From the sequence record PP488543.1: a stretch of 64,000 nucleotides of DNA; one strand, given 5' to 3'. A program made the position numbers and the translations under genes. This document shows positions 18,519-46,640 of the stretch, one piece after another. Below the pieces are notes generated by a model. The model was not told where the DNA came from. It made no database searches and worked only from the letters and a program-made list of their open reading frames with translations. The stretch's first letter is position 1. Every line of letters starts with the position of its first letter. The stretch is from Escherichia phage BP9.

Positions 18519-19187
18519 ATGGCTGTAGCTTATCCTACAATACCAATTCCAGATCTTGAAGATGCAGAAACAGTCCTGAGTGATGACTTCTTGGTTGTCA
18601 ACCAGACTGATGGGACAAGAAAGGCTAAGATTGACGATGTTGTCAACGATCTTAGCATCACTAAGATAGTCTATTTCACAGAGGGTGGTTATCTTAAGAG
18701 CAAGAAGGACTTTGCTTATGATCCAGAAACTAAGCGCTACTACACGTGGAACGGGGATTATCCTAAAATAATCCTCCCAGACTCCACTGTAGAGGGTGCT
18801 GGGGGTGTGTCTGCAAATGCCTGGTCTGTTTTTGGTGAGCTTGCTGCAACTTCTTCTGGCAGAATAGTTGATTACGGATCTATCGGTGGTCAGCTTGATA
18901 TGGATCTTGAAGTTGCGGATACCTTTAAGGTTCGACTAACTTCAAATACCACAATCTCTTTTGAAAATCAAACAGAAGGTCTTGAAGGGGTGGCGAGAAC
19001 TATAACCGTATGCATTACTCAGACCTCTGGCGGCAACAAAGTCTATTGGCCAGGTAATGTTAAATGGTCCTACGGAAGAGATCCTATCCTAACATTTACA
19101 GCTGGTGCAACAGACATTTTCAAGTTGGAAACCTACGACAACGGGTTAACTTGGTACGGGGCACTGATTATCGCAGGAGCTATCTAA
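18519..19187 (+). CDS. fibre-anchor domain protein (paralog of N-terminus of the 1270-aa fibre)
   Basis: N-terminus DDFLVVNQTDGTRKAKIDDVV...KDFAY parallels DDYLVVQQPDLTRRVKIGDVV...MDFAY of ORF 21823. Confidence 0.55.
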   Translation: MAVAYPTIPIPDLEDAETVLSDDFLVVNQTDGTRKAKIDDVVNDLSITKIVYFTEGGYLKSKKDFAYDPETKRYYTWNGDYPKIILPDSTVEGAGGVSANAWSVFGELAATSSGRIVDYGSIGGQLDMDLEVADTFKVRLTSNTTISFENQTEGLEGVARTITVCITQTSGGNKVYWPGNVKWSYGRDPILTFTAGATDIFKLETYDNGLTWYGALIIAGAI

Positions 19188-19188
19188 G

Positions 19189-21786
19189 ATGCGTATTCAA
19201 CATAACATTGATAACGTATTTCAGATGATTGAGGGGCACAGGAAGTGCCTCGATAACAACACAGGCATTACCAATCTCCCTACGCAGAACAAGCTGGTAA
19301 ACCCTGATGGTCTTATAGCTGCAGGGTGGGCAGGTAATAAGATAAATAATGATTGGGCAATGCATGAGTCCCAAGCTGTGTTGATTCTGGGATACATTGA
19401 AGCATACAGGGCATCGAAAAGCGATTTCTATCTGGATAGGGCAAAAGATGCTTGGGAAGCTTACAATAGTCATCTTCTGGGTGCATATGCAGTAGAAAGT
19501 AAAATGCAAAGATTGTCCCACTACCCTCTATCTACAGATGGGGTTCCATCACATGGTGGGTTTAAAGATGTGGTGGTGTCTTTTACCAATGGTAGAGGAA
19601 AAATCCCAGCTGGATCTCCGACATGGGGAGAATACCTGGACAAGGCATTCCAAGCGTATAACGGTGTGTTAGGAAGAAACACGGTAGACTCCGATGTTTA
19701 CGGTGGCACAGATGCTAACCCAGATTGGACAACATCCGGATTAAGTTGGTGGGTTGAGTGGTATATAGCATGGGATGGTAACCGCTATTGGGCTAACGGT
19801 AGCATAGCCGACAGTGGGCATACGTCTGTAGAGTTCGGCACAATCCAATTACAAGATAAGGGTGTTACAGGAAGCCACAAGGTAACCTATTGTGTAAGAT
19901 TACCTCAAGAGCAGGGTGGATCGGTGATACCTGCAGGATCCCCTGTAATTGTGAATCCTATAAACGTGGTTGCAGACAATCAAGCCCCAGAGTTGGACGG
20001 GGAAGAAATGTGGTGTGACGCTTGTTATCAACTCTACACCTTGACAGGTGAGGAAAAGTATTACACCGCGTTTAAACAGTCTTACAACAAGTTGCTTAAT
20101 TTCAGTGATATAAACGCCTACGACAAACTGTTTAGAAAGACCACGTTGATTAAGGCACCATTTACAGATGGTGCTTGTCTTGTTGCAGGAACAGTTCCTG
20201 TCATGATCAGGGATAGTGACGGGTATATCAATTTTAGAATGAACGCACGCCAGCCTTGCGAAATAATTCAAAAAGGGACTACATACAAAATAGGCAGAGA
20301 TGCTGAAATTGTTATGAATTTCGGAGGAGAAGGGGTTCTGTTCCAGCCACATTTCATCCTTAATGATGGCAACAATAACAAAAAACAGTACAGGATAGGT
20401 GTTCCTTTTGGAGGTGCAGAGGTAACAGAAATAGTTGCCAAGGTTACTGATTTCGTAGAGGTAGTTGGTAAAGACGGTAATCCGTACCTCTTACCTAAAG
20501 AGGAAAACATTGCCGTGAGCGGTGGTGCCAGTGTTAGTATGCAGTACGATACCGACATTTACAACCACTCTGACAACTTCACCCGTTGTAATATAGCAAG
20601 GGGCAAAGTAACTTTCAATTTTGGAAGAGAGATTTCTTTAAACTCAGTAACTTATCGATCAGATGATGAGATGGTAAGGGTCAAATTTCTTGACAAAGAC
20701 AGGTGGTTATGGTATGCTGATCTATATGCCACTAATGGACAATGGATAACAGAAACTCTTACTCTAGGAGATTTCAAACTAGATCCGACACAACCTCATC
20801 ACACCGAAGAAGAGATTAAACCTTTCTTTGCTAATCCTAAGGGGCTCACCTCTGTAGATTTCAGCCTAAGCGACAGGCAGATAGGTAATGGCTTGTTTGA
20901 CCTATATTGTGTCAACACACTGCCGCAATTTTATATTGCAGATAGAGATGCTTATCTAATCTGGTTTAGCGTATGGATGGCAAGCAAGACAGAATCAACC
21001 GCTAGGGTTGGCGATTGCTATGTCAGAAACTACAAGCAAGGCGCATACAGGCACACACCGGGTGTGTTCCCTGCCGGAAAGGTGATAGATAAGGAAAACT
21101 ATCTCTTAGAGGAAAAGCCAAATTGGCCCTACCCTGGCATGCAATATCCAGCAGTCTACTGCATGGGTGCAGAAAACATAGATCGCCATAGATTGTCAAA
21201 TACAATAGGCTTTCTGTATGACGCTCAAGTCTGGTATAATAATACATTTAAGACAGAGGGTCCAGTTGCCTCGCGTTATGTATGGCAGAGAGGTAATGAA
21301 GGGCTGACTGGTTGGTGGGAGATGGTAGATAACTCTAAACTCCAGTCAAGATCTTTTGTTGCTGCGTGCCGCACAATATATGAGCTCAAGAAACATAAAG
21401 AACCTGTTGATGAAAGACTATTCCTGTTCTGCCAGAAATGGGCATGGTTCCTCAACAGATTCCAGTCATCTCATTCAGGAAATCTGCCCACAGACTTTAA
21501 CACCTCTGGGGGATATTCTTATCAAGACAGAGGAGACAGGATGTGGGTGGTAGGTGAATGGCTTGCAGGTTGCTGCTGGCTAGGTCTGTGCGGGTATTCA
21601 GAGACAATACCTCAAATAGATATTGTTGTGGAAGCCTGTGTGAAGCTACTGCAAAAGCACCACTTCATTAATGGGGATAATATTTTAAACGGCTGCTGGG
21701 CAGTTTCTGATCCGGTTGGCTATCACTCTGGCGAAATCCTTCGCGGTCTGGGCCTTTATGCTCAATACCGTGGATTGTACCTTTAA
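19189..21786 (+). CDS. large tail-associated protein, enzyme-like (possible polysaccharide depolymerase)
   Basis: 865 aa; Trp/Tyr-rich, no fibre anchor domain; translationally coupled to preceding anchor-domain gene (TAA-G-ATG). Confidence 0.35.
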   Translation: MRIQHNIDNVFQMIEGHRKCLDNNTGITNLPTQNKLVNPDGLIAAGWAGNKINNDWAMHESQAVLILGYIEAYRASKSDFYLDRAKDAWEAYNSHLLGAYAVESKMQRLSHYPLSTDGVPSHGGFKDVVVSFTNGRGKIPAGSPTWGEYLDKAFQAYNGVLGRNTVDSDVYGGTDANPDWTTSGLSWWVEWYIAWDGNRYWANGSIADSGHTSVEFGTIQLQDKGVTGSHKVTYCVRLPQEQGGSVIPAGSPVIVNPINVVADNQAPELDGEEMWCDACYQLYTLTGEEKYYTAFKQSYNKLLNFSDINAYDKLFRKTTLIKAPFTDGACLVAGTVPVMIRDSDGYINFRMNARQPCEIIQKGTTYKIGRDAEIVMNFGGEGVLFQPHFILNDGNNNKKQYRIGVPFGGAEVTEIVAKVTDFVEVVGKDGNPYLLPKEENIAVSGGASVSMQYDTDIYNHSDNFTRCNIARGKVTFNFGREISLNSVTYRSDDEMVRVKFLDKDRWLWYADLYATNGQWITETLTLGDFKLDPTQPHHTEEEIKPFFANPKGLTSVDFSLSDRQIGNGLFDLYCVNTLPQFYIADRDAYLIWFSVWMASKTESTARVGDCYVRNYKQGAYRHTPGVFPAGKVIDKENYLLEEKPNWPYPGMQYPAVYCMGAENIDRHRLSNTIGFLYDAQVWYNNTFKTEGPVASRYVWQRGNEGLTGWWEMVDNSKLQSRSFVAACRTIYELKKHKEPVDERLFLFCQKWAWFLNRFQSSHSGNLPTDFNTSGGYSYQDRGDRMWVVGEWLAGCCWLGLCGYSETIPQIDIVVEACVKLLQKHHFINGDNILNGCWAVSDPVGYHSGEILRGLGLYAQYRGLYL

Positions 21787-21790
21787 CATA

Positions 21791-21822: not shown

Positions 21823-24800
21823 ATGGCTGATATTAAAGTTGTCAGAATTGAATCTCTTCCTGCCACTACCGCAGTGACAGAGGATGATTACCTGGTTGTT
21901 CAACAACCAGACCTGACCCGTCGTGTAAAAATTGGCGATGTTGTCCATGTTGATGGGACTGTTTCTCATGTAATCTCCTTTAAGGAAGGTGGTAAGTTAA
22001 ACGGCCCAATGGATTTTGCCTACTTCGAAGAGGAAGACCTCTACCTGCGTTGGAAAGGCGAATTTCCGCACACTGTTCCTGCACTATCTTCACCGTACTC
22101 CGATGGCGGGATTACTGACGCTGCATGGATGGTATATACTGACCCGTCCTTAAGGGAGGAGCTGGAATCTACCATTGGCGCATCCATGATCATGACAGCC
22201 GAAGGGCAGTCTGTCCAGGATGTAATGGATGTTACTGTTCAGACAGCTAACGATGCCAAAGCACTTGCACAGCGTGTAGATTTTGGTACAGTGCACACTG
22301 TAGGCGATGTTATTCACCTTGATAACTTTGTTGGCCCTGCAGTTATTGAAGAGGGAAGAACTACCAACTACCCTTCTGTAGCAGCTGGTGAAAAATTTCT
22401 GAACGGTGTGGTATCTCGTCGTGATACTACAACTGTTGATGGTATTTTCCGTGGCGCTACCTCCGGAGCAATGTATACCATTGCAGTAACCAACGGTGTA
22501 GCAACAACAAAAAGAATAGCACTTCGTGATGAATTTAAACGCCTGGAGGCAAACAACCAAACAAGAACAATTATCCGTGCTGGAGATGATTTAAACACGG
22601 CAGGGTACTTGCAGCTTGATGCAACAGGCCGTTGGGGTATGTGGAACCAACAAACAGCTTCTTGGCAGCCTCTTGCTATAGAGCAGGGCGGCACAGGGGC
22701 TAGAGATGCCGCTGGAATCCGTACCAATATCGGTGCTTTCTATAAGCAACGTGCAGCCCTTGAGCCAAATTTCAATATCAATAACTTGACTGGTAATCAG
22801 GATGGTATATACTACCAGCCGATGACTGCTTATGCAACTGAGGCAAATGGTTATCCTGCAGGTTCTGGTGCTGGTCACTTGATTGTTTGGCAGAACAATG
22901 CTAACGGTGGTACAGGTTGTCGTCAGGAATACTATCCATTCTCCAACGTAGATGTTTGGTATTTGAGAACCTATCAGGCCAACACAAATCAGTGGACTGC
23001 ATGGCAGCCGATGGTCAGACCTCGTAACGATGATACCTTTAGAGCGCACATCGGTCTCGGGTCTAGAAACTCCCCTACCTTCGGGCACCTTTACCTGTCT
23101 CAAAGCTCTGCGGATGTTAAGTCAGCATCAGGTATTGTTAACGGAGACAAATACAACGCTGACGGTGTCCTTGAGCATGGGTATAGGATCTACTCTGAGG
23201 TAAGGAACGACAATAAGGCTTGGTTGACAATCCACCTGCACAAAGGTGCAAAAGGATCTGAAACTCATAGATATTTAGGCTTCCGTGAGGATGGGGTCTT
23301 AGATTGTCCTAAATATATGCAGGTTGGTGATCTGAACGGTCAGATGGCAAACTGGGGACTTGGAGAATGGATCCGCAGTTCAGGAGCAGAAAGAGGTTTC
23401 TGGGGATCTAAGAAAGCCGCCAAGATGGTCATCTGGGATGGCGGTATGGACGAGCAAGGTGAAGGAACGCTTGAGTGGGGTGTTTATAACAACCGGAAAG
23501 CCAAATGGGAACCACTACCGATAGCTTGTGGTGGTACCAGTGCCAGGACTGTAGGGGATGCTCAAGCACAATTCAGAATCCCTCTGGCAGCAGGTACTAG
23601 ACCATATGTAAACCTGCCTAGAACTGCAGCTATGCAGGACGGTAAGTATTATCCTATTATCGTCAGAACTGACCCCAACTTTGCAGCAACTATCGGGACA
23701 GATTTAACCATTGTCACCAGATCTTCTTCTGGCGGCGACCCAATGAACTGTGCTACACTACAGTGTCACTACAGAATTGGTGGCTGGACAGACAGAGGTG
23801 ATTCTTTCCAAGGGGTTATTAATTTCTACCAAAACGAGAAAGCAATCCTCGGATGTGTATCTCCAACCAGAGGTAAGCAGGAGTATGTTGCATTCTATGT
23901 AGAGGCACGTGCATTCCCTGTTACAGTATATGCTGGCGCTACTGTAATAGAAGTGTCAACCAGGGAGGTTGATTGGCAGGTAGGCAACGTGGAAGGTAAC
24001 CAAGATGGTGTCAAGTTCTGTGCTCCTCTGGCATCTGCAGATTTGAGTCTTGCAATCAAAGGTGATGATGTAACAAACACTAGACCTCTGGTTGAGTTCA
24101 AAGGGACATCAGGTTTCTACACTGGTGGTGGAACTATGTGGCACTACCTGGGAACTCCTGAACGCTATGCAGTGATGAGCAAAATGAACATGCCTAAAGT
24201 CGAGCTTTGGGCAGACGGTATTGACTACATTTGTCCTGGTAGTCAGACCACTAGAAAAGCACTGTTCTCTAACGCAGGGTTCCAAGCTGCATCGGAAGGA
24301 ACAGAGGATCTGATCAACAACACCTTTACCTCTAAATGTGGTAATGGTGCAAGACTACAAGGCCAGGCAGAGTTCAGATCTACTCCAGAGGCTGGTCAAG
24401 TTATTGTTCGTGATGTTGTAGGCACAGCTCATAGATTCTATAACTTCAACAAAGATGGCACTTTCTCAGCCCCTGGTGGTTTTGTATGTCATACTGGTGC
24501 AGACTGGAACAACCAGTTTGGGCCTAACAACCCTTCTAAAATAATGGCAGGCAATGTCAACGGACCTGAAGGATCGATGGTTGTTGGTGGGTTGTCTGTG
24601 GCGTTTTCTGGAAACTATGCCTTCCAAATGGCTGGTCGCCTTGATCAGTTATACACCAGATCTATCGAGGGTGGTAACCATAGGGCATGGAACAAAGTTA
24701 TTCAGCACCGTGGTCAAGGTCTGGGGACAGAAGACCTTAATGACTACGATGGTAGCCGTGAAGGTTTCTATCACCAGGGTTCAAACGCTGACGCACTTGT

Positions 24801-25635
24801 AATAGCTCGTCACTACCCTGCTCCGTACGCTGGTACGCTGCTTGTTTACAAAAACACAGCCAACAGACCGCAAGGTTGTGTGCAGGAATACATTACCTAT
24901 TTTGGTGACAGATATACTCGTGCTGGTAACTACGTTGGCGATGTCTTTACTTGGGAAGAATGGAGACACGATGCTGGTAAGGGCATTCAGTTAAGACCTA
25001 ATTACACTTTCGGTGAAAACAGTACTCAGCTGGAAATTCATGTTGGTGCTAATGGTCTTCCATCCAACGCCGATAACTTACCTACCAACAATGCTATACT
25101 CCATTATTGGGGTAACGGCAGTGCAGGGACTCGTCCAAACGTGTTAGAGTTTAAGGTTCTTGACGAGTCTCAATCGGCTTATGTATGGCATTGCGGTACC
25201 TTGCCGGATAAATCAAGATATCTTTCTGTAAACGGTGCTGTGAATTGCACATCTGTCAATCAGAGTTCTGACAGAGATCTGAAAGATAACATAGCTGTTA
25301 TTCCTGATGCGTTAGAAGCTATCCGGAAGATGAGGGGTTATACTTACACTCTTAAAGAGAACGGTATGCCTTATGCAGGTGTTATAGCACAAGAAGTTCT
25401 TGAAGCGCTGCCGGAAGCAGTTAGCTCTTTCGTGCAAAGAAAGGAAATCCCAAACCCTGATCAGGATGGAACTCCTTTAATAACAGAGGAAAGATTCTAC
25501 AGCGTGGATTACGCAGCTGTAACAGGCTTGCTTGTCCAGGTTTGCAGGGAACAGGATGATAAAATAACCGCCCTTGAGGAGCAGGTTAAAAAATTGACAG
25601 AGGTTGTTACTGGGTTGCAAGAGAAACTGAAGTAA
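21823..25635 (+). CDS. long tail fibre with C-terminal intramolecular chaperone (peptidase S74-like) domain
   Basis: 1270 aa; C-terminal SSDRDLKDNIAVIPDALEAIRKMRGYTYTL...AGVIAQEV...coiled coil matches auto-cleaving chaperone domain. Confidence 0.75.
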   Translation: MADIKVVRIESLPATTAVTEDDYLVVQQPDLTRRVKIGDVVHVDGTVSHVISFKEGGKLNGPMDFAYFEEEDLYLRWKGEFPHTVPALSSPYSDGGITDAAWMVYTDPSLREELESTIGASMIMTAEGQSVQDVMDVTVQTANDAKALAQRVDFGTVHTVGDVIHLDNFVGPAVIEEGRTTNYPSVAAGEKFLNGVVSRRDTTTVDGIFRGATSGAMYTIAVTNGVATTKRIALRDEFKRLEANNQTRTIIRAGDDLNTAGYLQLDATGRWGMWNQQTASWQPLAIEQGGTGARDAAGIRTNIGAFYKQRAALEPNFNINNLTGNQDGIYYQPMTAYATEANGYPAGSGAGHLIVWQNNANGGTGCRQEYYPFSNVDVWYLRTYQANTNQWTAWQPMVRPRNDDTFRAHIGLGSRNSPTFGHLYLSQSSADVKSASGIVNGDKYNADGVLEHGYRIYSEVRNDNKAWLTIHLHKGAKGSETHRYLGFREDGVLDCPKYMQVGDLNGQMANWGLGEWIRSSGAERGFWGSKKAAKMVIWDGGMDEQGEGTLEWGVYNNRKAKWEPLPIACGGTSARTVGDAQAQFRIPLAAGTRPYVNLPRTAAMQDGKYYPIIVRTDPNFAATIGTDLTIVTRSSSGGDPMNCATLQCHYRIGGWTDRGDSFQGVINFYQNEKAILGCVSPTRGKQEYVAFYVEARAFPVTVYAGATVIEVSTREVDWQVGNVEGNQDGVKFCAPLASADLSLAIKGDDVTNTRPLVEFKGTSGFYTGGGTMWHYLGTPERYAVMSKMNMPKVELWADGIDYICPGSQTTRKALFSNAGFQAASEGTEDLINNTFTSKCGNGARLQGQAEFRSTPEAGQVIVRDVVGTAHRFYNFNKDGTFSAPGGFVCHTGADWNNQFGPNNPSKIMAGNVNGPEGSMVVGGLSVAFSGNYAFQMAGRLDQLYTRSIEGGNHRAWNKVIQHRGQGLGTEDLNDYDGSREGFYHQGSNADALVIARHYPAPYAGTLLVYKNTANRPQGCVQEYITYFGDRYTRAGNYVGDVFTWEEWRHDAGKGIQLRPNYTFGENSTQLEIHVGANGLPSNADNLPTNNAILHYWGNGSAGTRPNVLEFKVLDESQSAYVWHCGTLPDKSRYLSVNGAVNCTSVNQSSDRDLKDNIAVIPDALEAIRKMRGYTYTLKENGMPYAGVIAQEVLEALPEAVSSFVQRKEIPNPDQDGTPLITEERFYSVDYAAVTGLLVQVCREQDDKITALEEQVKKLTEVVTGLQEKLK

Positions 25636-25642: not shown

Positions 25643-25672
25643 GCCCCCGCTTCGGCGGGGGCTTTTTGTTTG
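25643..25672 (+). terminator. intrinsic terminator (CCCCGCTTCGGCGGGG family)
   Basis: GCCCCCGC-TTCG-GCGGGGGC then TTTTTGTTTGT. Confidence 0.85.
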
Positions 25673-25674: not shown

Positions 25675-25703
25675 TTGCGTATTAACTCAAAATCTGGTAA
25701 AAT
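25675..25703 (+). promoter_or_regulatory. sigma70-type promoter (TTGCGT, 17 bp, TAAAAT with upstream TGG)
   Basis: -35 25675-25680, -10 25698-25703. Confidence 0.6.
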
Positions 25704-25734
25704 AACTATCATGATTGTTTAACCGGGAGGCACA

Positions 25735-26325
25735 ATGTTTTTATGGGAAAGGCCTAGATACCTTCCAGATATTAGATTGGAGCTGCTGGCAGATATTGTT
25801 ACGTTTAAAAGTCCGTTTACAGGTAAAACGCAAAAAGTAACCTATGCCACACCTAACTGGAAAGGCACTTTGACGGTTTCCAATATCAGCGAGTCACAGT
25901 TGCTAGAGCTTAAGAGCTTTGTTGATCAGGTGTATAAAGATGGAAACATCTTTCTTATTAAAACTTACGGTCACTCAGTAACAGCTAATGAGCCAATCGC
26001 CCTCGGGCCTACTGGTAACGATGATTTTTTGAGGACGGTTGGGTGGGAGCCAAACAGAGACATAGCCAGAGCTGGGGATAAAATATCTGTCAATGATGAA
26101 TTGAAAGTGGTAACAGCTCCAGTGCGTAGCGATGGTGTTGGGTCTGCTGTTATAAGCATATCTCCAAGACTTAGAAAACCTATTGCCGCAGGGGACACTA
26201 TGAAGATAATAACTCAATCCCCGAAGGGTAGGTTTCATATCAGAGATATTTATAAAATTAAGCAAAAAGTCGATGCTATGCAAAAAGGGGATAATATAGT
26301 TATCAACTTCTTTGAGGATTTCTAA
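25735..26325 (+). CDS. putative distal tail protein (lambda gpM-like)
   Basis: 196 aa; segment WKGTLTVSNISESQLLELKSFV resembles gpM; first gene of a lambda-like tip cluster ending in a J-like protein. Confidence 0.4.
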   Translation: MFLWERPRYLPDIRLELLADIVTFKSPFTGKTQKVTYATPNWKGTLTVSNISESQLLELKSFVDQVYKDGNIFLIKTYGHSVTANEPIALGPTGNDDFLRTVGWEPNRDIARAGDKISVNDELKVVTAPVRSDGVGSAVISISPRLRKPIAAGDTMKIITQSPKGRFHIRDIYKIKQKVDAMQKGDNIVINFFEDF

Positions 26326-26430
26326 GATGATCAGAGCGCCATTAGATAATTTATTTCTTGAAAGCTGGAGCTTGATGGTGTTGAGATCTTAATTGCTGCA
26401 AAGCTGGAGCTACCGACAGGAACTGTCAGG

Positions 26431-26877
26431 GTGTGCTCAGGCACTGGTGTTGTAGTAATTGAGGGGCAACATTTTATAGGGATAGGTGGGTCAGCAACAT
26501 TAACCGCTGTGTCTGAGAAAGATGCCACCAACTTCGGATCTGTGGTAGCGACATTGAACGGGTTTGATCCTAAGTATGTGGGTGATCTGCTGAAGACGGA
26601 GTATTCTGGTTGTCGTGCCACGTTGTACATTACCGCTATGGAGAATGGTCTGCCTGTTACAACTAATGGCTTGTTTGACGGCCTTATAACAGATATGGCT
26701 ATTCAGACGGGTGAGAATAGCGCTTTGTCCATATCCATCTCTTCCATCTTCAACAGTTGGTTAAGAGGTTTTCCTTATCGGTACACGGAGGAAAGCCACA
26801 GCTCAAGAAACGATAACGACAGATTTTTTAAATATGTGGATCAGGTGGCGAGCCGCCCGATCATTTGGGAGGTTTAA
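26431..26877 (+). CDS. hypothetical minor tail protein (gpL-like position); 5' end uncertain
   Basis: GTG start 26431 with SD AGGA; frame is open upstream to 26362 and encodes a KLEL repeat. Confidence 0.35.
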   Translation: MCSGTGVVVIEGQHFIGIGGSATLTAVSEKDATNFGSVVATLNGFDPKYVGDLLKTEYSGCRATLYITAMENGLPVTTNGLFDGLITDMAIQTGENSALSISISSIFNSWLRGFPYRYTEESHSSRNDNDRFFKYVDQVASRPIIWEV

Positions 26878-31447: not shown

Positions 31448-31454
31448 CCTTTAA

Positions 31455-31483
31455 AGCCCCGCTTCGGCGGGGTTTATTTTTAT
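31455..31483 (+). terminator. intrinsic terminator (CCCCGCTTCGGCGGGG family)
   Basis: AGCCCCGC-TTCG-GCGGGGT then TTATTTTTAT. Confidence 0.85.
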
Positions 31484-31519: not shown

Positions 31520-31552
31520 ACCTTGTAGAGATTTTCATACCGGAGGAGTGAC

Positions 31553-37800: not shown

Positions 37801-37830
37801 AGAACGGAAAGGACTCCGTTCTTGCATTTT
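37801..37830 (+). terminator. intrinsic terminator
   Basis: AGAACGG-AAAGGACT-CCGTTCT then TGCATTTTGTT. Confidence 0.7.
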
Positions 37831-37850
37831 GTTCTCTAAAGTGTTAAAAT
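37822..37850 (+). promoter_or_regulatory. sigma70-type promoter (TTGCAT, 17 bp, TAAAAT)
   Basis: -35 37822-37827 overlaps terminator tail; -10 37845-37850. Confidence 0.55.
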
Positions 37851-37877
37851 AGTTCTAAGGAATTTTCTCAGGAGAAC

Positions 37878-38924
37878 GTGATGACTAAACCAGTTATCCC
37901 TCTTGATATTTGGGCCAATCAGGATGTTGTGCTTGAAAATACGGGAGAGTTGAATAAATCTCAACCAAAAAAAGAAGAGAGATTGAAAGGTTGGGATATG
38001 ACACAAAGAATGGCATGTGAAGTTGTTAACTTTGAACTTCACATGCTTTCTGCGTGGTTGAAGCATTTAACAGAAGATGTTGTCCCTGGATGGGATAATA
38101 GATTCTTAAGGGTCACTAATAATCTGGCAGACGTTCCAGACAAAGCTGCTGCACGTCAAGTTCTCAATGTATACTCGCCTGAAGAAATGGATGACCTTTA
38201 TGTTGACAAGACTGGAGACACAATGATCCAGACTCAAACTTTAGGTCTTCAAAGGATCGAGTTTGCATCTGCGTCAACAGACAATGCGGCGATATACACC
38301 ACCATAACTCCAGACAAGACGATGATGGATTTCTGGATTATGGACAACATCGGTGGTGCTGACGGCACAGACCTTGATGACCCTTCTCACCAAATAGACG
38401 GTTTCCGTTGGAGATTTCAACCTTCTGGTGGGCAGCCTGTGTTTTCGGCTATGAAGCTCAATGCTATAACTGCCAACCGTGCAAGACTGGCTATCCAAGG
38501 AAATCTTGAATGCAATGATGCAAAAAGCTCCTCTGCAAATGCTAATGCGGTAACGATACCAAGAGCCACTGTTAATGGGCAACAATCCTGCGGCAGCGCT
38601 CAAATAGGTGGAAGAGTAGATTGTAACGATAAAACCGCCAGGGGTCAATATGCAACAGTTGGTGGAAGAAACGTGGTCCGCAGGGTAAATGGTAGTAGCG
38701 CAGATAGCAGTGGTAACCTTACTATTCCTATGCCTAGTAGGGGTGTTGAAGATGTAAGGATAGCAAACCGTTTCAGAACCACCTATAGAGAATCAAGAGT
38801 ATACCCTGGGCATGTAATGTGCTCCGGCAATTACGCCTATAAACACCCGTATCAGGGCGACTATTGGACTGGAGCTATTCAAAAATTTGTAAACGGTCAA
38901 TGGATCACCATATCTTATGCTTAA
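37878..38924 (+). CDS. tail fibre protein (P2 gpH-like) copy 2
   Basis: 348 aa; paralog of 35826 ORF (PLDIWANQD...KGWDMTQRM; tip QKFVNGQWITISYA); start GTG 37878 or ATG 37881 after SD AGGAGA. Confidence 0.7.
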   Translation: MMTKPVIPLDIWANQDVVLENTGELNKSQPKKEERLKGWDMTQRMACEVVNFELHMLSAWLKHLTEDVVPGWDNRFLRVTNNLADVPDKAAARQVLNVYSPEEMDDLYVDKTGDTMIQTQTLGLQRIEFASASTDNAAIYTTITPDKTMMDFWIMDNIGGADGTDLDDPSHQIDGFRWRFQPSGGQPVFSAMKLNAITANRARLAIQGNLECNDAKSSSANANAVTIPRATVNGQQSCGSAQIGGRVDCNDKTARGQYATVGGRNVVRRVNGSSADSSGNLTIPMPSRGVEDVRIANRFRTTYRESRVYPGHVMCSGNYAYKHPYQGDYWTGAIQKFVNGQWITISYA

Positions 38925-39209: not shown

Positions 39210-40955
39210 ATGGCGCAAGACATGACAAGCTTCGAGCAGGCGGTAGATCAAGTAATTGTTGATTCTGAACGTTTGCACTTGATTGTCAACGGTAACGCTG
39301 TGGATGAAGTTGTCGTAGAGGATGGGACCACTATCCCTACGGTACGAAAAGCCATGCTTGACACCCTTTATTTTAAAACGCCACCAATCCCTTGGGCGTA
39401 TGGTGCATCCACAACAGTTTTTAACCAGTTGTATGAGTTTAAAGGGGATACAGGCACTCAGTGGTGGTACGCCCCAGCAGCATCAAAATCTAACCCAGTT
39501 AGGATGCCAGCAGATCCTTCACAATCTCCGAACTGGAGATTATATACAGATTCTGCAGTAATGGCAAAATACTACGCAAAACTTAACAGCCCAAGGTTCG
39601 AAGGTGATCCGAGAGCACCTACACCTCCAATGGACGATAAGTCCGAGTCTATAGCAAACACAGAGTTTGTTGTTGACTATGTGGATAGTATATTCAAAGC
39701 CATGGAGGGGATGAAAGTAACTGTAGGGTCTTTGGTAGTGAAAGGTCTTACAGAACTGGCTAACACCATAGTTGGTGGCACCCTTACCATACACGGGCCT
39801 GTTAATGGGGCTGATTCTACTGCACGCTTCAGGAACCTAATCCTTACTGCAAATACTTCTACACTAACTTTTGCGTGGAGCGATCCTAAGCATGCAGACT
39901 GGAGAAGCACAGAGCTGCAACCTCATGAAGTGGTCACCCACAGAGTTATAGCTGACACTATAACTTCTGGGAAACCAGTGGCTAATAACAACGATGTGCA
40001 TTTTGATGGTCTAGGTAATAACTTTTTTGACTACGTGTACATTCGTGGTAATGCCATGAAGGCAGCAACCGAACCGACATTGCAGGTTGATGGGACCACC
40101 AGGGTTAAGAACCTTGAGGTGACAGGCACCGTTACAGGGATAACCTACTCTGTGGATGGCACCATGATCTACCCTAGCTATATTGAAAGCACAGGGGATG
40201 CACTGATCAATGGGGATTTAGAGGTTGGCGGATCTATAGTCATTCGTGGCACAGCATCTGTTCAGAACATATCTTTAAATACTCTGAGGGTGAATGAGCG
40301 TGCCACTTTTGAAGGGGAAGGGCTTACTGCCAACAAAGGTGTGATTACCGAGCTGACAGCCACCACTCTAACTGCAACAACTGCAAACTCTGAAAACTGC
40401 AACGTTACCCGCAACTTGCAGGTAAATGGAGATGTTAGTTTAAACGCAGCAGGTACGGGTACCACCTCTGTTCACAACCTTGAAATATCTGGCACGGTGA
40501 CTGGGTGGCTGCCAGACTTCTCTAATGTCAACTTTGTCTGCAACGGCATTAACTCTAGTGGTAAGATAACCACCTCTCAAGAAATTGAGGCTGGTAAAAC
40601 TATTACTGCCCCTACTTTCCACGCAGGGAAGGTAGATTTTGATCTAGAGGAGGTTGACGCATCAGGTGGGACATGGACACCTAACGGGCAGGCCAGCATG
40701 TATGTTGTCCACGCGAAAGGGGATTTTACAATAGGCCAATGGCCTGGAACATCGGCTGAAGATAAACCTTACCCGTTTACTGCAATCATCTATGTCATTC
40801 AAGATGCTGTAGGCCACAACGTGACTTTGCACGATAAATATGCCATACTGTCGGCTACCCCTGTCATTAACAACAAAGCCAACAGCGTTACCTTGCTACA
40901 ATTGACATATTGTGGTGTTGGTGATATTGTGGATGTGGTTATTGCACAACGTTAA
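39210..40955 (+). CDS. tail fibre / tailspike-like protein
   Basis: 581 aa; repetitive TGTVTG-type beta-rich segments; SD AAGGAGA. Confidence 0.45.
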   Translation: MAQDMTSFEQAVDQVIVDSERLHLIVNGNAVDEVVVEDGTTIPTVRKAMLDTLYFKTPPIPWAYGASTTVFNQLYEFKGDTGTQWWYAPAASKSNPVRMPADPSQSPNWRLYTDSAVMAKYYAKLNSPRFEGDPRAPTPPMDDKSESIANTEFVVDYVDSIFKAMEGMKVTVGSLVVKGLTELANTIVGGTLTIHGPVNGADSTARFRNLILTANTSTLTFAWSDPKHADWRSTELQPHEVVTHRVIADTITSGKPVANNNDVHFDGLGNNFFDYVYIRGNAMKAATEPTLQVDGTTRVKNLEVTGTVTGITYSVDGTMIYPSYIESTGDALINGDLEVGGSIVIRGTASVQNISLNTLRVNERATFEGEGLTANKGVITELTATTLTATTANSENCNVTRNLQVNGDVSLNAAGTGTTSVHNLEISGTVTGWLPDFSNVNFVCNGINSSGKITTSQEIEAGKTITAPTFHAGKVDFDLEEVDASGGTWTPNGQASMYVVHAKGDFTIGQWPGTSAEDKPYPFTAIIYVIQDAVGHNVTLHDKYAILSATPVINNKANSVTLLQLTYCGVGDIVDVVIAQR

Positions 40956-40963
40956 TATATCTG

Positions 40964-40990
40964 ACCGCTCCTGACGGGGCGGTTTTCTTA
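40964..40990 (+). terminator. hairpin, probable terminator
   Basis: ACCGCTCC-TGAC-GGGGCGGT then TTTCTT. Confidence 0.45.
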
Positions 40991-41003: not shown

Positions 41004-44000
41004 ATGCTTCCAATCCCTTTGCTAAAACTTGGTCGTCATTTCCTCGATAAGAGGGGTGGAGTTAAGGAACTTGCTGTTCTGTCATACCCAATAGACAACA
41101 GTGACGGTACAAGCACTACAGTAGCCTATGTAAATAGTTTAGCTATACTTTTTGACGACGGTCAACTTAATATTACAGGGTACAACAGGTTCGGGGAGTG
41201 TAGGACTGGGGATCTTGACACGATAAACTACCCTAATGAGGCTGCCTGGAACGTTGATCATGTGTGGAGAGCAGATCGTGCGTTTGTGATCCGAACTTTT
41301 GATAATCAGTTTTTCTACATCGGCTGTACTGCAGGGCTTATTGGGTCTGATGCTGCAGGCGGTAATGATGTTTGTGTAAGGGAGTGGACACCTCTTCCTG
41401 AACAAATCGTTAAAGGATTGCACCTTGACACCCACCCAGAGCGCCTTGTTGAGGTGATGGGTGGTATTAACAACACCGTCTGGGTTATGGCAGAGGCAGA
41501 AGGTACTGGCATTTTACACCTGTACGGATCTGGTAACAACACCTACGGATCTTTGCATGTGGATAAAAACCAGCATGCAACTCCTGTAAAGATTGGTGAA
41601 ACATCGGAAAATCCTGAAACAGGTCCTTGGAAAAACCCAAGCATCAACTGTGAGGTGCATGATAACTCTGTTATTTTCGGCGGTCCTAAAGGTTTCTGGA
41701 TTGCGGGATACGACTTTCTGAGAAACAACAGTAGAAACGACCTTGTTTGGCCTCCTGCTCAGATTACTCGTGACGATTTGAGAGGTATTCCTGCAGATGA
41801 GGAGTGGAAAGGGTTCATGTGTGGTCCGAACGGGGCAGTGGTTGTAACACAAAGAATGCACAGACCTGATGACCAGCAACTTGTTAACGTATTCTACGGG
41901 CAAAACATCTGGGGAGATGATACATGGCGTTCCTTAAATCTTACCTACACCCATGAAGTAATAATGGCGCGTGGGTACGGAACAAGCGGCATTTTCTTCA
42001 ATAATGGCACTAAGCAGTACCGTGGATTCTCTCGCAACTTATGTAATGATATTGGTGCACAGTCTGCAAACAATAGCCCTAGGGATAATTTTATCCACTA
42101 TCAAGCCCTTGCTACAGCTAAATATGTTGAGCAAAGACTGCCAGTCAGCTGGACAGAGAGTGTTTATTTCCAAGGCATTCACAGAGAAGGTTTTTTAGGA
42201 ACTTTTACCGTTGTTAATGGTAAACTTTGGTGGTCAGGTATCCCAAGGGGAAGTTTTGCAGGCTCTAATAACCTGTTTGGCGGCAGACTTAATAGCCAAG
42301 GGTTCACGGAGGTCCCTGAGAATTGGTATAAAAATGTCCCAGTAGATAGTTGGGGTGTTGATGATATTTTCGACGTTAACGGTGTTAGCAGCGTTAGCAA
42401 TATCTACATTGGCGACACGGTCAAGATGAAATTGAAGCCTCAGCCAGAGGGGGCTACGTTCATTATTGACAAGATTGAACTGGTAAATGCTGCAGGTACG
42501 GTTGTTACAGATGCAAATTACCAATTCTCTACCAACTGGAACCACGGCGGGGCCAACGAAGTTATTGTTACCCAGTATAACAGGAATGTTAACAGACGTG
42601 GACTGTACTCCGTAAAAATAACCTATCATGACAAACATGGCACAGGCAGGACCCACACAACAAGGACTTTGAACTGGAACACTATTGTCCCTGCGTATCC
42701 GTCTGATGGTAAATGGCATACTGTCGGTAGAAACAAACAGTTCCATGTTAATGACACTGTATACTTTGGACTAAATGCGGCCCAGCCTGCAGTAGAAGGG
42801 GATACATCGTATATGGTCAGACTCCATAGAATGGATGCTGGGTCAGTAACCTATGATGTTACCCAAGAGATTTATAATCAGCGACGAAATACCTATGATA
42901 ACTTGGTGCAGACACAGGCCCTATGGGAGTTCAACCCAAACGGAAGGGGTGGTAAAATGTTGCAGGTCAACGAACAAAACGGGACATCGTTGACTGTTCA
43001 CGAACACCCAAACCCTTGGCCTGATCCTGGAAAACCTAACTCTGGTGCTCGTACACTAAAAATTGTCAGCCATGACGTAGGATATTTCGGAATACGCTGG
43101 GAAGCCACAGTAAGATATGCCGACGGGACAACAAACAATATAGGGATTACCCTTGGTGGCACCAGTGAGAATAACTCGCTGAAAATTGCCTACACTCCTA
43201 GAGGTATTTCTATTGATAATATGGATGTTGTTCGCAACGGTTACGGGGATGTGAACATCAAAGTTACTCTTGGTGAACATCTTGGCGGGGAAAGGATCAT
43301 CATGTATGCCTTTGATCATGACCCTCGCACCAACGGAACATATGCAGACCAGGCGTGGAGCTACCTGATAAGCGCACCTGAGCCAAATACCAAAGAATTC
43401 TACTACGGTATGAAGCGAGATGTGTGCAAGAAAACAGGGACACATGACTGGATTGCGATCTGTGTTAAAGATGAACGTACCGCTTGGAACGAGCCTGTTA
43501 ACAGATGGTTCATAGGTATTCCCACCCGAAGTGATAAATACGTTGAAGAATACATTGTGTGCATGGGCGGCACCAACCTTAATATGTGTTGGAACGGGGA
43601 TGCAAACAACAAATACTCTGATTATGACTATATGCGGGACTATTCTTGCAATCAGTGGTTTAACCAACCTGGATATGCTGATCGACAGGCAAGAGTGAAT
43701 CCTGCAATCTTTACAGATACGCAGGTTTTCTTGACAAAACAGGCCAACGAGGTTCAGACCTTCAAGAACAAATACGACCCTAACAAGTGGTTTTATAACT
43801 GTTATGGCGCATTTTTCTGGGGTCCTGGGGAACTACCTGGCGGGGGATCTTGCTTCGAGTCTGCAACTTACGCCAGTGACTACATCATGGGGCAGGTTAA
43901 GAAGTATAAGATAATCCCCGGCCCTGAAACTTTGGGCAATGCCGTTGACCCTTATATCGTCATGACTGCGCTGAGATCAAACATGGATGGGACATCCATG

Positions 44001-46640
44001 TCTATGCAAATCCCAGTAACAAATGGGTACAAACGTGTTGTAATGATCATTAAGTGCGACCTAATAGGTAAACAAGTTCTTGCGGAAAACGGTACCTCCA
44101 CACATCCTTTTGAGATCGCTCTACACTATCAGTTTGCTGACTCGCCTTTTGCAGGTGATAAGAGAATATCTGATACAGATACACAGCGTTGTAAGAAGGT
44201 GTTGTTAGGTGCAGGTTGGTGGTGGTATGAATTTGATTTAACAGACAAATTCACCGACACGTCAAAAGTTGTAACGGGTCTTCGCCTAGACCTTGGCGAG
44301 AACATGCATAAAGCTGTTTGTGATGGCACCTATGGTGATCCTACAGTATATCTAAAGTATGTCTCTTTTGAGCATCCGGAAGATGTTGTTTACGGTCCAA
44401 AACTGAGATTGTTTGGCAGTTGGATTGCAAAAGACAGGGTAGGCATGGGTAAAAAGGTAAGAGGGTTCTTAGTTGATGCAGGAACAGAGGACATGCTGGT
44501 TAATGCAGTATGGCCTGAATTGCCCGGCACTCAGTGGGATAACTCTGCCAAATCTATAAACTGGTTCAACATTCACAGGGCTATGTGGACCACTAACTGC
44601 TACTTGTGGAGAGAGCTTAACGATCAGGCTTTTGGCTTCAGCAACGGCAGAAGGATGGCAATCATTTGCTGGACAACGCTGCAAAGGTGCTATGACCATG
44701 ACTACGAGATTGGCGGTAGGGCATGGAAAAATATCAGGGATAGAATCATAACCAATTTTGCAGACGACAACGGAGGTGGAGCACATAACTTCGGCACAAG
44801 TAGACTTATTCACTTGAATGGGTCATCTGCATATAAGAAAGAGGGTTATTCTGGGTCTATGATCGAGTGGGGTCTGGTGAAAGATGCTCGCGTATTGATG
44901 GGTCAACAACTTGCTGCTGCAATAGGACCTAACGCAGTGCAGTCTGTTAAACCAGCGTGGTTCGATATCCCAATATGGTCATCTGGAACACCAGGAACTG
45001 CGGCAATCAACCCTACCACTGGGGATCTGGAAATCTCTTGGGAGGACTTAAAGCAGGTTGGTGGCTGGGATAAGACTGGGTACCAAGTGCAATGGTGGAG
45101 ATCTGACGGATCGTTAGCGGCTGATGAGTTTGTTAAGGACAATTTCTACACTATGTCCTCTGCAAAAGCACAGCAATTGTTTGGTCAAGCAACTCCGTCA
45201 ACGATCACTATGTCTATGTGCTGTAAAGATACCAGGACTGGAGCTCTGGGGCCAAGGGTTGCTAAAGTTTTCTCAGGTATTAAGTGGAATCTTCCTGTTC
45301 AAAGTGTTTCATGGAAGCAAATAGGTGATAACAAGCTACTGGTTACTCCTGCCTGCCAGTTCAACGCAACTCTCAACGTTGACCCAGCTGTTGCAGCAAA
45401 CTCGGCTAGAGCTTCTGACTTCTCTGTGTCTAACACTGCCATGGCAGATGTGAGAAAGATTGACACACTGAATGCCAGAATTACCTGTAAAAACACTTAT
45501 GGCACATTCCAGATCATCAACAACTTTACAGATGTTGATTCTAAGGCAGTGAGGACAGCCAGCCAGACTATGCAGTTAGGCACTCTGGCATACTCTGCAC
45601 TGATCACTGAACAGTCTCCTACCCTTCAGGGTGGGGGTGTTGGTAAGTTGATTACAACTCCTGTATGGAAGCCAAATGAGTGGGTTGTATTCGATTTGAC
45701 TGTGGACTTCTCCAGTGATAATAACTGGACATGGGTAAGGAATTGTTTGTCACAGCTGATGGGTGGCCCAAACTCCATTAGTGATAGCCATGACTCTACT
45801 GACCCGAGTGTGTTCCAGGTTGGTAAAACTCACCCAGAAACTGGGGCACAGTTGCCTGACAGGAAGTATGCTTTGGTTTGCATCTCCAACGGCAAGGCAG
45901 ATGTAACCTTCTCAGGGACACACACATATAACGGCACTTACAACTTCTCTAAAAAGTACAGCCTCAAGGCAGGTAACATTGTAGACGAGGTTGGTGCGTT
46001 GTATAATCCGGGAAACGGGATAGGGATTGTAGGTGGTAAACTGCAGATGCAGGAACCTTCTATTACCCCTTCCAATGTGCCAGGAATCAGAAAGACTTGG
46101 GAAAGTAGTAATACCAACATTGCAACAGTGGATGCCACCACAGGATTGGTAACATTTAAAGCTACTGGGAATGTCACCATAAAGTTTGTAGTTACAGATG
46201 ATGCAGGGCGCAAAACGTCTTCAACATCTTTTACTGTCAAACAGATGGCACCGCAGTGGAGAATGTGGATAGGTACAGCAACAAACGGGGCATACCCTAA
46301 TCCGGCAGGTACTTCTGGTATGAAGACTTTCTCTACAAGCAAACCGATGGAGTACGGCAGCGGTCCTAAGGTAGGGCAGATGGTGTACTTTGGTGCGTAT
46401 ATTCCTGAAATTATAGGGCTTCCGAGAAGTCAGCTTCAGTTGCTGTTTGGGGCTGGTGTTGACGATCTTGCCACTTTCGGGTATAGCGACAACATCGAGG
46501 CTGCAAGGAGTTCAGGATGGGTAGGGTTCAGAATGGAGTCTGGAAAGGAAGGCAGGATTCTAGGGACAGCCTCTATAGGTGTTATGTTCCCTGGTGACCA
46601 GCAGTATCGTCTAGAAGCCTACGCAACCTTTTCTCGTTAA
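41004..46640 (+). CDS. giant virion-associated protein with RCC1-like repeats and Big_2-like domain
   Basis: 1878 aa; N-terminal GSGNNTYGSLHVDKN-type repeats; near C-terminus TWESSNTNIATVDATTGLVTFKATGNVTIKFVVTDDAG (Ig-like). Confidence 0.5.
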   Translation: MLPIPLLKLGRHFLDKRGGVKELAVLSYPIDNSDGTSTTVAYVNSLAILFDDGQLNITGYNRFGECRTGDLDTINYPNEAAWNVDHVWRADRAFVIRTFDNQFFYIGCTAGLIGSDAAGGNDVCVREWTPLPEQIVKGLHLDTHPERLVEVMGGINNTVWVMAEAEGTGILHLYGSGNNTYGSLHVDKNQHATPVKIGETSENPETGPWKNPSINCEVHDNSVIFGGPKGFWIAGYDFLRNNSRNDLVWPPAQITRDDLRGIPADEEWKGFMCGPNGAVVVTQRMHRPDDQQLVNVFYGQNIWGDDTWRSLNLTYTHEVIMARGYGTSGIFFNNGTKQYRGFSRNLCNDIGAQSANNSPRDNFIHYQALATAKYVEQRLPVSWTESVYFQGIHREGFLGTFTVVNGKLWWSGIPRGSFAGSNNLFGGRLNSQGFTEVPENWYKNVPVDSWGVDDIFDVNGVSSVSNIYIGDTVKMKLKPQPEGATFIIDKIELVNAAGTVVTDANYQFSTNWNHGGANEVIVTQYNRNVNRRGLYSVKITYHDKHGTGRTHTTRTLNWNTIVPAYPSDGKWHTVGRNKQFHVNDTVYFGLNAAQPAVEGDTSYMVRLHRMDAGSVTYDVTQEIYNQRRNTYDNLVQTQALWEFNPNGRGGKMLQVNEQNGTSLTVHEHPNPWPDPGKPNSGARTLKIVSHDVGYFGIRWEATVRYADGTTNNIGITLGGTSENNSLKIAYTPRGISIDNMDVVRNGYGDVNIKVTLGEHLGGERIIMYAFDHDPRTNGTYADQAWSYLISAPEPNTKEFYYGMKRDVCKKTGTHDWIAICVKDERTAWNEPVNRWFIGIPTRSDKYVEEYIVCMGGTNLNMCWNGDANNKYSDYDYMRDYSCNQWFNQPGYADRQARVNPAIFTDTQVFLTKQANEVQTFKNKYDPNKWFYNCYGAFFWGPGELPGGGSCFESATYASDYIMGQVKKYKIIPGPETLGNAVDPYIVMTALRSNMDGTSMSMQIPVTNGYKRVVMIIKCDLIGKQVLAENGTSTHPFEIALHYQFADSPFAGDKRISDTDTQRCKKVLLGAGWWWYEFDLTDKFTDTSKVVTGLRLDLGENMHKAVCDGTYGDPTVYLKYVSFEHPEDVVYGPKLRLFGSWIAKDRVGMGKKVRGFLVDAGTEDMLVNAVWPELPGTQWDNSAKSINWFNIHRAMWTTNCYLWRELNDQAFGFSNGRRMAIICWTTLQRCYDHDYEIGGRAWKNIRDRIITNFADDNGGGAHNFGTSRLIHLNGSSAYKKEGYSGSMIEWGLVKDARVLMGQQLAAAIGPNAVQSVKPAWFDIPIWSSGTPGTAAINPTTGDLEISWEDLKQVGGWDKTGYQVQWWRSDGSLAADEFVKDNFYTMSSAKAQQLFGQATPSTITMSMCCKDTRTGALGPRVAKVFSGIKWNLPVQSVSWKQIGDNKLLVTPACQFNATLNVDPAVAANSARASDFSVSNTAMADVRKIDTLNARITCKNTYGTFQIINNFTDVDSKAVRTASQTMQLGTLAYSALITEQSPTLQGGGVGKLITTPVWKPNEWVVFDLTVDFSSDNNWTWVRNCLSQLMGGPNSISDSHDSTDPSVFQVGKTHPETGAQLPDRKYALVCISNGKADVTFSGTHTYNGTYNFSKKYSLKAGNIVDEVGALYNPGNGIGIVGGKLQMQEPSITPSNVPGIRKTWESSNTNIATVDATTGLVTFKATGNVTIKFVVTDDAGRKTSSTSFTVKQMAPQWRMWIGTATNGAYPNPAGTSGMKTFSTSKPMEYGSGPKVGQMVYFGAYIPEIIGLPRSQLQLLFGAGVDDLATFGYSDNIEAARSSGWVGFRMESGKEGRILGTASIGVMFPGDQQYRLEAYATFSR

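Follow-up and report, generated by a model that had tools for sequence, protein, structure and literature searches.

Phages of the genus Vequintavirus carry three co-expressed sets of lateral fibres and have been likened to a Swiss army knife (PMC8594841). Nine annotated tail fiber proteins have been given for two of these phages, with three seen using cryo-electron microscopy (cryo-EM) near the baseplate (PMC12143355). Their primary receptor is a conserved surface glycan, first taken to be enterobacterial common antigen (ECA) and now regarded as the N4 glycan receptor (PMC8594841, PMC11990801). Three fibre sets are also visible on the particle of phi92 (PMC8594841). The flagellotropic Certrevirus phiTE has a three-fibre network consisting of a short, a long, and a third putative fibre; the N-terminal bundle of its long tail fibre (LTF; 9CUY) forms a 'rip-cord' with the sheath initiator (PMC11972413). 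Here we describe the fibre locus of Escherichia phage BP9 (PP488543.1), which occupies positions 18519–46640 of the 64,000-nucleotide stretch of its DNA that was analysed (hereafter the window, to which all positions refer).

The locus is an unbroken run of co-oriented open reading frames (ORFs) on the plus strand, as are all features below unless otherwise stated. Its gene order corresponds one to one with rV5 gp27–gp49 and with the BASEL phages EduardKellenberger and MaxBurger, and rV5 and other Vequintavirus members (BASEL Bas48–59) share with it not only gene order but also gene sizes, terminators, late promoters, and the same three variable genes. Megablast of positions 18519–43500 matched 131 phage records, 97 of which had at least 80% query coverage at 92–98% identity; almost all of them come from Escherichia phages belonging to Vequintavirus (rV5-like myoviruses). 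The label 'Campylobacter phage' stands on eighteen records (some UNVERIFIED; e.g., MG065662 and MG065646) that are Vequintavirus by classification and 94–95% identical to the locus; these host labels are probably wrong.

The identity, gene order, and domain content of the locus are observed directly, and we consider it highly probable that this is the host-recognition locus of a Vequintavirus, an rV5-like E. coli myovirus, building a multivalent baseplate. An earlier note on this DNA, made from its letters alone, had listed at least seven fibre- or spike-like genes within about 28 kilobases (kb); all of the ORFs that it named are present on the plus strand at the sizes it gave, and every fibre-like one among them matches PHROG families of the tail fiber or tail protein type. 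Its inventory missed a ninth fibre, the protein of 690 amino acids (aa) encoded at 33741–35813. The nine fibre or adaptor proteins are interleaved with baseplate genes, as had been described: hub, spike, and sheath-initiator genes lie upstream and a wedge pair (31553–33741) lies in the middle. Such a set is exceptionally large relative to most phages, as the note had it, but is usual within the genus. The multi-receptor particle that it proposed is likewise supported, and is the published view of the group (PMC8594841, PMC12143355, 10.1101/2025.11.20.689424); the multivalent apparatus is the 'nanosized Swiss army knife' of rV5/phi92-type phages (PMC8594841, PMC3606486, PMC12143355, PMC13450770) and is thus already known. 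The under-discussed feature is a complete siphovirus-type tail-tip cassette inside the contractile-tail baseplate cluster.

A siphovirus-type tail-tip cassette

The cassette (25735–31447) consists of four genes, encoding a Dit-like protein, two small proteins, and a hub-plus-fibre J-like protein. It is specific to Vequintavirus and syntenic with Seuratvirus: the tape-measure gene of Seuratvirus WildeMaa is followed by genes for proteins of 194 aa, 194 aa, and 144 aa and for the J-like tail-tip protein (bas23_0017–0020), and the four cassette proteins are, in order, 32%, 42%, 45%, and 50% identical to those of WildeMaa. Hafnia phage yong3, Serratia phage Serbin, and Vibrio phage 1.066 show this gene order as well. 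Compared with the module of Queuovirinae siphoviruses, gene order is the same and sizes are similar, with a longer J shaft here. In those siphoviruses, however, the module immediately follows the tape-measure gene and makes the essential tail tip, whereas here it lies 11 kb away among myovirus baseplate genes: from the end of the tape-measure gene at 14717 to the cassette start at 25735, the hub, spike, and sheath-initiator genes and three fibre genes intervene. No counterparts of the four genes were found by tblastn in the tail regions of Cronobacter phage GAP31 (Seunavirus) or phAPEC8 (Phapecoctavirus). The rV5 GenBank record (2008) noted gp37–gp40 as resembling genes of siphovirus PY54, and RefSeq labels within the cassette read 'distal tail protein' and 'central tail fiber J'; our literature search found no paper discussing a siphovirus-type cassette as such in rV5-like phages.

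The first gene (25735–26325; rV5 gp40 orthologue) encodes the 196-aa Dit-like protein and matches PHROG 1302 ('distal tail protein', E = 5e-50); the Dit-like gene lies directly 3' of the tape-measure gene in six siphoviruses. The best PDB profile match of its product, T5 Dit, is weak (E = 0.25), and a structure predicted from a shallow alignment was unusable (pLDDT 36). Profile comparison found no similarity between the Dit-like protein and lambda M, or between the second cassette protein and lambda L, and these two proteins are at best positional analogues of M and L. An annotation of the Dit-like gene as broken in JEP1 was rejected, the gene being intact by tblastn and codon alignment. The third gene (26865–27302; rV5 gp38 orthologue) encodes a 145-aa DUF6950 protein (Pfam PF22262, E = 3e-33), which is 45% identical to its Seuratvirus homologue and matches lambda K only weakly, through a Cys motif.

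The second gene (26327–26877; rV5 gp39 orthologue; PHROG 2048 tail protein), whose 42% identical Seuratvirus counterpart is bas23_0018, encodes 183 aa in relatives and is broken here. A one-nucleotide deletion in an A run at 26361 (GAAAAG to GAAAG), private to this phage as compared with its Vequintavirus relatives, leaves a residual ORF at 26431–26877; the A4 run is present in all ten relatives examined, and the break also shows in an alignment with EduardKellenberger. Because the remainder of the gene shows a nonsynonymous rate (dN) of 0.000 against a synonymous rate (dS) of up to 0.44, and because all ten relatives retain A4, the lesion is either recent or a homopolymer sequencing error.

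The fourth gene (27302–31447; rV5 gp37 orthologue, long-shaft allele) encodes the 1381-aa J-like protein, which carries Phage_Tail_Tip, Ig_J_second, and Ig_J domains (Pfam PF24489, E = 1e-30; PF09327, E = 8e-39) and matches lambda J in PDB (8iyk, E = 3e-28). Residues 48–867, spanning the hub and the immunoglobulin-like (Ig) domains, share 50% identity with the Seuratvirus tail-tip protein, and the first 520 residues align at 48–57% identity over 91% to tip proteins that in many cases contain the J hub domain PF13550. The direct Pfam match of the hub region is sub-threshold; N-terminal profiles match the T5 pb3 hub (E = 1.5e-7) and residues 218–482 of the lambda J hub (hhalign, 76% probability, E = 2e-5). 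By this N-terminal similarity, the protein is a complete hub-plus-fibre tip protein and not a mere fibre with J-like repeats. Both Vequintavirus alleles have a polar segment in the first ~45 residues (27302–27436; mean hydropathy 0.01, with nine charged residues), whereas the same segment is hydrophobic in all seven siphovirus or prophage homologues examined (hydropathy 1.0–1.8, at most two charged residues). The very first residues (MP.A.I) are still recognisably homologous to those of the siphovirus proteins despite the polar segment.

The long allele is also found in WM, YN3, ECP32, and NHEP1, whereas rV5 and the BASEL phages examined encode a 1279-aa form. The two alleles differ only at residues ~690–860 and 950–1050 (29370–29880 and 30150–30450 in the window), while the hub (1–650) and the distal 330 residues are 99–100% identical between them; the variation therefore alters the length or composition of the shaft, not the tip. 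That the alleles differ in the coiled-coil shaft would be unexpected if variation tracked receptor diversity.

The Dit-like gene was found at ≥90% identity in 118 records, as compared with 117 records for the wedge gene at ≥95%; all other Dit-like matches fall below 60% identity, and the records listed for them are 42–84 kb genomes, siphoviruses where a family is assigned. The ratio of nonsynonymous to synonymous rates (dN/dS) is 0.00–0.07 for all four cassette genes, with dS up to 0.48 (0.01–0.07 for the Dit-like gene alone). These values lie in the same range as those of the hub and wedge genes, and on this basis the cassette is maintained by selection. It is also self-contained, with its own late promoter and terminator. 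Its siphovirus origin and the selection acting on it are shown by these data; in our reading, a four-gene siphovirus tip cassette was captured in the Vequintavirus lineage and then kept under selection.

Shared framework, variable genes, and transcription units

All window proteins were compared by tblastn with the tail regions of GAP31 and phAPEC8. Common to all three genera are, in this order, the hub, spike, and sheath initiator, the adaptor, an 865-like protein, and a large fibre, followed by the wedge pair, a short fibre with its chaperone, and lastly a 581-like fibre and a terminal large protein. Because this framework is shared by GAP31, phAPEC8, and Vequintavirus, most of the interleaving of fibre and baseplate genes is ancestral and not a recent interruption. 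The comparison with related genomes that the earlier note had suggested as a check singles out the four-gene cassette and the second short fibre as genus-specific, while the framework proves to be shared and not inserted. Its proposal of assembly by modular acquisition thus stands as regards modularity (anchors, three variable genes, a genus-specific four-gene block), but not as regards insertion as the main cause.

For several proteins, the N-terminal parts alone are common across genera: residues 1–197 of the 1878-aa protein (matching phAPEC8 gp086 and GAP31_232), residues 6–112 of the 581-aa fibre (with phAPEC8), and residues 1–134 of the 1270-aa fibre. As judged from sequence, a conserved anchor with an exchangeable distal part, the classic pattern, is present in several of these fibres. 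phi92 and phAPEC8 (Stephanstirmvirinae) have the same framework and share N-terminal anchors with this locus. However, phAPEC8 is without the J-like cassette and the second short fibre, carrying endosialidase and colanidase fibres instead, and its 690-aa homologue lies before the wedge genes, unlike here.

Among ten Vequintavirus genomes, only the 1270-aa, J-like (two alleles), and 1878-aa genes vary, all others being at least 96% identical; this pattern is directly observed, and the same three variable genes are stated in PMC8594841 (S5C). dN/dS is 0.00–0.14 across all measurable genes of the locus (the 1878-aa gene being outside the measured set). Evolution of the locus is modular at two levels, with exchange of distal or shaft regions in three genes within the genus, and with different whole genes behind shared anchors between genera.

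The transcription signals can also be read directly. The supplement of the rV5 paper (Table S4) gives late promoters with core TGGTAAAATA before gp40, gp36, and gp30, and terminators after gp41, gp28, and gp27. In the window, strong hairpins with T runs lie just 3' of stop codons at 25643, 31454, 37801, 40963, and 46655, ending the 1270-aa, J-like, 104-aa, 581-aa, and 1878-aa genes, respectively. The first (25643–25662; eight G-C pairs and a T run) is the equivalent of rV5 t041 (Table S4), and the second (31454–31475; a nine-pair stem and a T run) closes the cassette. Exact copies of the core TGGTAAAATA follow 30–35 nucleotides beyond these two terminators: one at 25695–25704 before the cassette (rV5 P040 equivalent), and one at 31511, which is overlapped by a sigma-70-like TTGACT-17-TAAAAT in the wedge-gene promoter (31491–31520; rV5 P036). 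After the third hairpin (37801–37822), a one-mismatch late-promoter-like copy, TGTTAAAATA, lies at 37842–37851 (rV5 P030 equivalent), the pair spanning 37801–37851.

The fourth terminator (40963–40984), identified by the hairpin scan and equivalent to rV5 t028 (Table S4), is followed only 20 nucleotides on by the start codon (ATG) of the 1878-aa gene, and no promoter lies between them. That gene must therefore depend on terminator read-through, and its expression is probably set by it. The last site (46655–46676), not assigned to a strand, is the end terminator of the late structural operon; its rV5 equivalent, t026/t027, is annotated on both strands. Three pairs of terminator and late promoter, one promoterless terminator, and one terminal terminator cut the locus into units; separation by terminator and promoter pairs, as had been claimed, thus holds at three junctions but not at 40963. 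The late-promoter motif is enriched in the window (21 matches vs. 5.5 expected), whereas generic sigma-70 and terminator scans overall are not enriched over shuffles; the informative evidence lies in the position of specific sites and in the published rV5 late-promoter motif, not in generic scan totals. Late transcription would run through the locus, broken by terminators and restarted by late promoters, an arrangement that probably tunes the amount of each fibre.

A 16-nucleotide terminator core, CCCCGCTTCGGCGGGG, occurs three times in the window (25645, 31457, and 57608) and also in rV5 terminator t003. The identical cores flanking the cassette were considered as marks of a recombination event; this was rejected because the core occurs elsewhere in the genome and is a recurrent motif, not an insertion scar.

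The fibre proteins and their neighbours

The locus opens with the 222-aa adaptor (18519–19187; rV5 gp43 orthologue; PHROG 7760 tail fiber), called a fibre anchor in the earlier note and found to carry a Tail_spike_N domain (Pfam PF18668, E = 2e-10). It is 98–100% identical within the genus; by tblastn, its C-terminal half is common to phAPEC8 gp098 and the whole protein to GAP31_221. The same TSP1/gp66-type N-terminal domain occurs on the 1270-aa fibre (E = 9e-11), and is shared with the branched tailspike complexes of CBA120 and G7C. Next is the 865-aa tail protein (19189–21786; rV5 gp42 orthologue; PHROG 2871 tail protein), a candidate fibre component with homologues 34–35% identical at the equivalent position in phAPEC8 and GAP31. 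The earlier label 'enzyme-like' could not be verified: there was no Pfam match and no PDB sequence match, marginal profile matches to (alpha/alpha)6 epimerases span about 35 residues, and a Foldseek search of PDB with the predicted model (pLDDT 64) returned generic beta-sandwich and epimerase matches of low TM-score, with no fold assigned. A carbohydrate-active domain is possible, judging by these profile matches.

The 1270-aa lateral fibre (21823–25635; rV5 gp41 orthologue) combines Tail_spike_N at residues 46–103 with a C-terminal S74 intramolecular chaperone (Peptidase_S74, PF13884, E = 9e-14) at residues 1149–1200, as had been claimed. Its N-terminal anchor is conserved and its distal two-thirds variable; across the ten Vequintavirus genomes the protein is 85–99.8% identical, with DNA identity falling to 61% in a variable patch at 23000–25400. 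Residues 409–1268 are 34% identical to a Seuratvirus lateral fibre (13051–16437 in the Seuratvirus sequence) encoded beside the J-like gene of that phage, a match that points to gene flow between the two coliphage groups. The nearest outside relatives of two adjoining modules, the distal part of this fibre and the J cassette, are both in the Seuratvirus group.

Beyond the cassette lies the baseplate wedge pair (31553–33741; rV5 gp36/gp35 orthologues; Pfam Baseplate_J; PHROG 6 and 4056), a 496-aa Baseplate_J-like protein and a 228-aa protein that are 60–64% identical in GAP31. It is followed by the 690-aa fibre (33741–35813; rV5 gp34 orthologue), which contains an N4 gp64/gp65-type TIM barrel (PF23845, E = 2e-79; PF23844, E = 9e-13) and a Calx-beta domain, matches Gp64 of the N4 tail complex (PDB 9lc0_M, E = 3e-24), and is 98–100% identical in the genus. 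Phage N4 gp64/gp65 have the same TIM barrel and N-terminal Pfam families and, by the literature, the same glycan receptor (PMC8594841, PMC11990801); N4, however, is a podovirus, and here the N4-type domain belongs to another kind of particle and to a protein that is shorter. The 690-aa fibre is a candidate binder or deacetylase of the conserved surface glycan (PMC8594841, PMC11990801).

Two short tail fibres of 346 aa (35826–36866; rV5 gp33 orthologue) and 348 aa (37878–38924; rV5 gp30 orthologue), both PHROG 4465, flank a 194-aa tail-fibre assembly chaperone (36881–37465; rV5 gp32 orthologue; Pfam Caudo_TAP, E = 8e-12; PHROG 136). The second is a Vequintavirus-specific paralogue; GAP31 and phAPEC8 have only one copy. 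These fibres had been described as gpH-like with different tips. Two fibres are indeed present, but they are 43% identical and differ along their whole length, not at the tips only, and direct similarity to P2 gpH was not seen: no P2 or Mu record occurred among the 45 of 440 tblastn matches sampled for the short fibre. Distant homology of the short fibre and chaperone to Mu GpS and GpU has been reported (PMC8594841). The N-terminal ~100 aa of the 346-aa protein match the phiTE short tail fibre (STF).

The 581-aa core lateral fibre (39210–40955; rV5 gp28 orthologue) is a homologue of the phiTE LTF (PDB 9cuy_g, E = 6e-76, residues 8–325) and has a 43% identical full-length homologue in GAP31. 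The baseplate-attached N-terminal parts of the phiTE LTF and STF are common to the 581-aa fibre and the short fibres, whereas the distal parts differ. The last gene (41004–46640; rV5 gp27 orthologue) encodes the giant fibre-like protein of 1878 aa, with a conserved anchor (1–197; PHROG 11922 tail protein at 38–197), a variable body, and an Ig-like domain (Big_2/intimin; 1686–1733) near the C-terminus; this intimin Ig domain was its only match in PDB. The protein is 90–97% identical in the genus, and variable throughout. In phage magaca (26670–32297 of its own sequence), the orthologue is annotated as two coding sequences (616 and 1257 aa), although tblastn covers 100% of the query. The split annotation suggests that this K-12-isolated phage has an in-frame stop, which would agree with dispensability.

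Functional model and alternative readings

On K-12, Bas54 tolerates transposon insertions in its orthologues of the genes for the 865-aa, 1270-aa, Dit-like, J-like, and 1878-aa proteins, and different fibre genes are conditionally essential on different clinical strains; the two middle cassette genes are not reported in these data (10.1101/2025.11.20.689424). Dispensability on K-12 together with conditional essentiality supports a core-plus-accessory, multi-receptor particle. A highly conserved core set, made up of the 581-aa fibre, the 690-aa fibre, and the two short fibres of Mu/P2 class plus their chaperone, would recognise the conserved glycan first and then the lipopolysaccharide (LPS) core, the 690-aa fibre and the invariant short fibres being obvious candidates for these glycan and LPS-core steps. 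By homology with phiTE, the 581-aa fibre would couple fibre movement to the sheath initiator. An accessory set would be mounted on conserved N-terminal anchors and would broaden recognition to further surface structures; it comprises the 222-aa adaptor and the 865-aa protein together, the 1270-aa fibre with its S74 domain, the J-like protein with its three partners, and the 1878-aa Ig-domain protein. Where the proteins sit on the virion, which receptors they bind, and how they divide into core and accessory sets are drawn here from published work or from inference.

Several observations weigh against this model and against the multivalent baseplate more generally. BP9 is known here from sequence alone, and the experiments cited were performed with other phages. 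Mass spectrometry of rV5 virions recovered four peptides of the J-like gp37 and three of gp27, at 3–4% coverage (PMC3606486), and cryo-EM of Bas49 and Bas54 placed only three fibres, with the J-like, 865-aa, 1270-aa, and 1878-aa proteins not located (PMC12143355). Enzymatic activity of the 865-aa protein is unsupported by Pfam, PDB, or fold searches. Additionally, the frameshift in the gp39 orthologue may mean that the cassette is impaired in this isolate, or may be a sequence error.

Part of the evidence could also be taken to indicate that the fibre genes are recent, independent insertions, each with its own terminator and promoter, interrupting a contiguous baseplate operon. The J cassette would fit this account, being missing from GAP31 and phAPEC8, bordered by a terminator and promoter at one end and by a terminator at the other end, and closest to siphovirus relatives; the genus-specific second short fibre and the different position of the 690-aa gene in phAPEC8 would fit as well. 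However, all three genera have the adaptor, 865-aa, and large fibre genes placed after the sheath initiator and before the wedge genes, with the short fibre, its chaperone, the 581-aa fibre, and the terminal large fibre coming after the wedge pair, and the terminator core is the recurrent genomic motif described above (57608, rV5 t003), not an insertion scar. Recent insertion is thus an unlikely explanation of the locus as a whole, for which we prefer an ancestral framework with modular exchange. As for the cassette, the label 'central tail fiber J' from RefSeq and several submitters, the retained hub-type N-terminal domains of the J-like protein, and the Dit-like and minor tip genes upstream of it would be expected if these proteins formed the true central tail tip, a lambda-like siphovirus central fibre below the baseplate. 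This is very improbable: the phage encodes a tube initiator, hub, and P2-type spike of its own, 58–61% identical to those of the cassette-less GAP31; the spike is axial, at the centre of the baseplate, in phi92 and phiTE; Bas54 remains infective with transposon insertions in the J-like and Dit-like orthologues; 11 kb separate the cassette from the tape-measure gene, directly 3' of which it lies in siphoviruses; and the hydrophobic N-terminal segment of the siphovirus proteins has been lost. The phage's own hub and spike, together with the tolerated insertions, argue that the J-like protein is not the axial tip, so that of the earlier 'lambda-J-like central fibre' the resemblance to J stands and the central position is probably incorrect.

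Hardly more credible is a cassette that is a non-functional relic or selfish passenger, contributing nothing to the particle. Its dispensability on K-12 in Bas54, the frameshifted gene in this window, and a product that cryo-EM did not locate and that mass spectrometry supports weakly are what such a relic would show. Yet all four genes evolve under the same low dN/dS as the hub and wedge genes, the cassette ORFs are intact in 10 of 10 relatives, the Dit-like gene is as widespread as the wedge gene (118 vs. 117 records), a dedicated late promoter precedes the block, and one good tryptic peptide from the J-like hub region was obtained from rV5 virions. For a cassette kept under selection away from the tail axis, we offer the tentative and rather doubtful suggestion that it builds an autonomous siphovirus-style tip sub-complex, mounted off-axis on the contractile baseplate as an accessory host-recognition organelle. 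The polar N-terminus of the J-like protein would, under such an off-axis arrangement, reflect the loss of a DNA-conduit or membrane role. If true, this would be a structurally undescribed way of building a lateral receptor-binding device.

rV5-like phages are common in therapeutic and biocontrol cocktails, and their multi-fibre locus accounts for how broadly they recognise hosts. To the published picture, the present analysis adds a map of the ancestral framework, of the exchangeable distal modules, and of the anchors, for use in engineering and annotation, and documents that one 'lateral fibre' is in fact a full siphovirus tail-tip module, maintained by selection. For the question of gene-to-fibre assignment in this group, recognised in PMC8594841, PMC12143355, and PMC13450770, the cassette offers a concrete target.

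No tRNA genes were found across the whole window. Downstream of the fibre locus (46700–53500) the coding strand is minus, returning to plus at 53481–64000, and GC skew is negative at about 47–54 kb.

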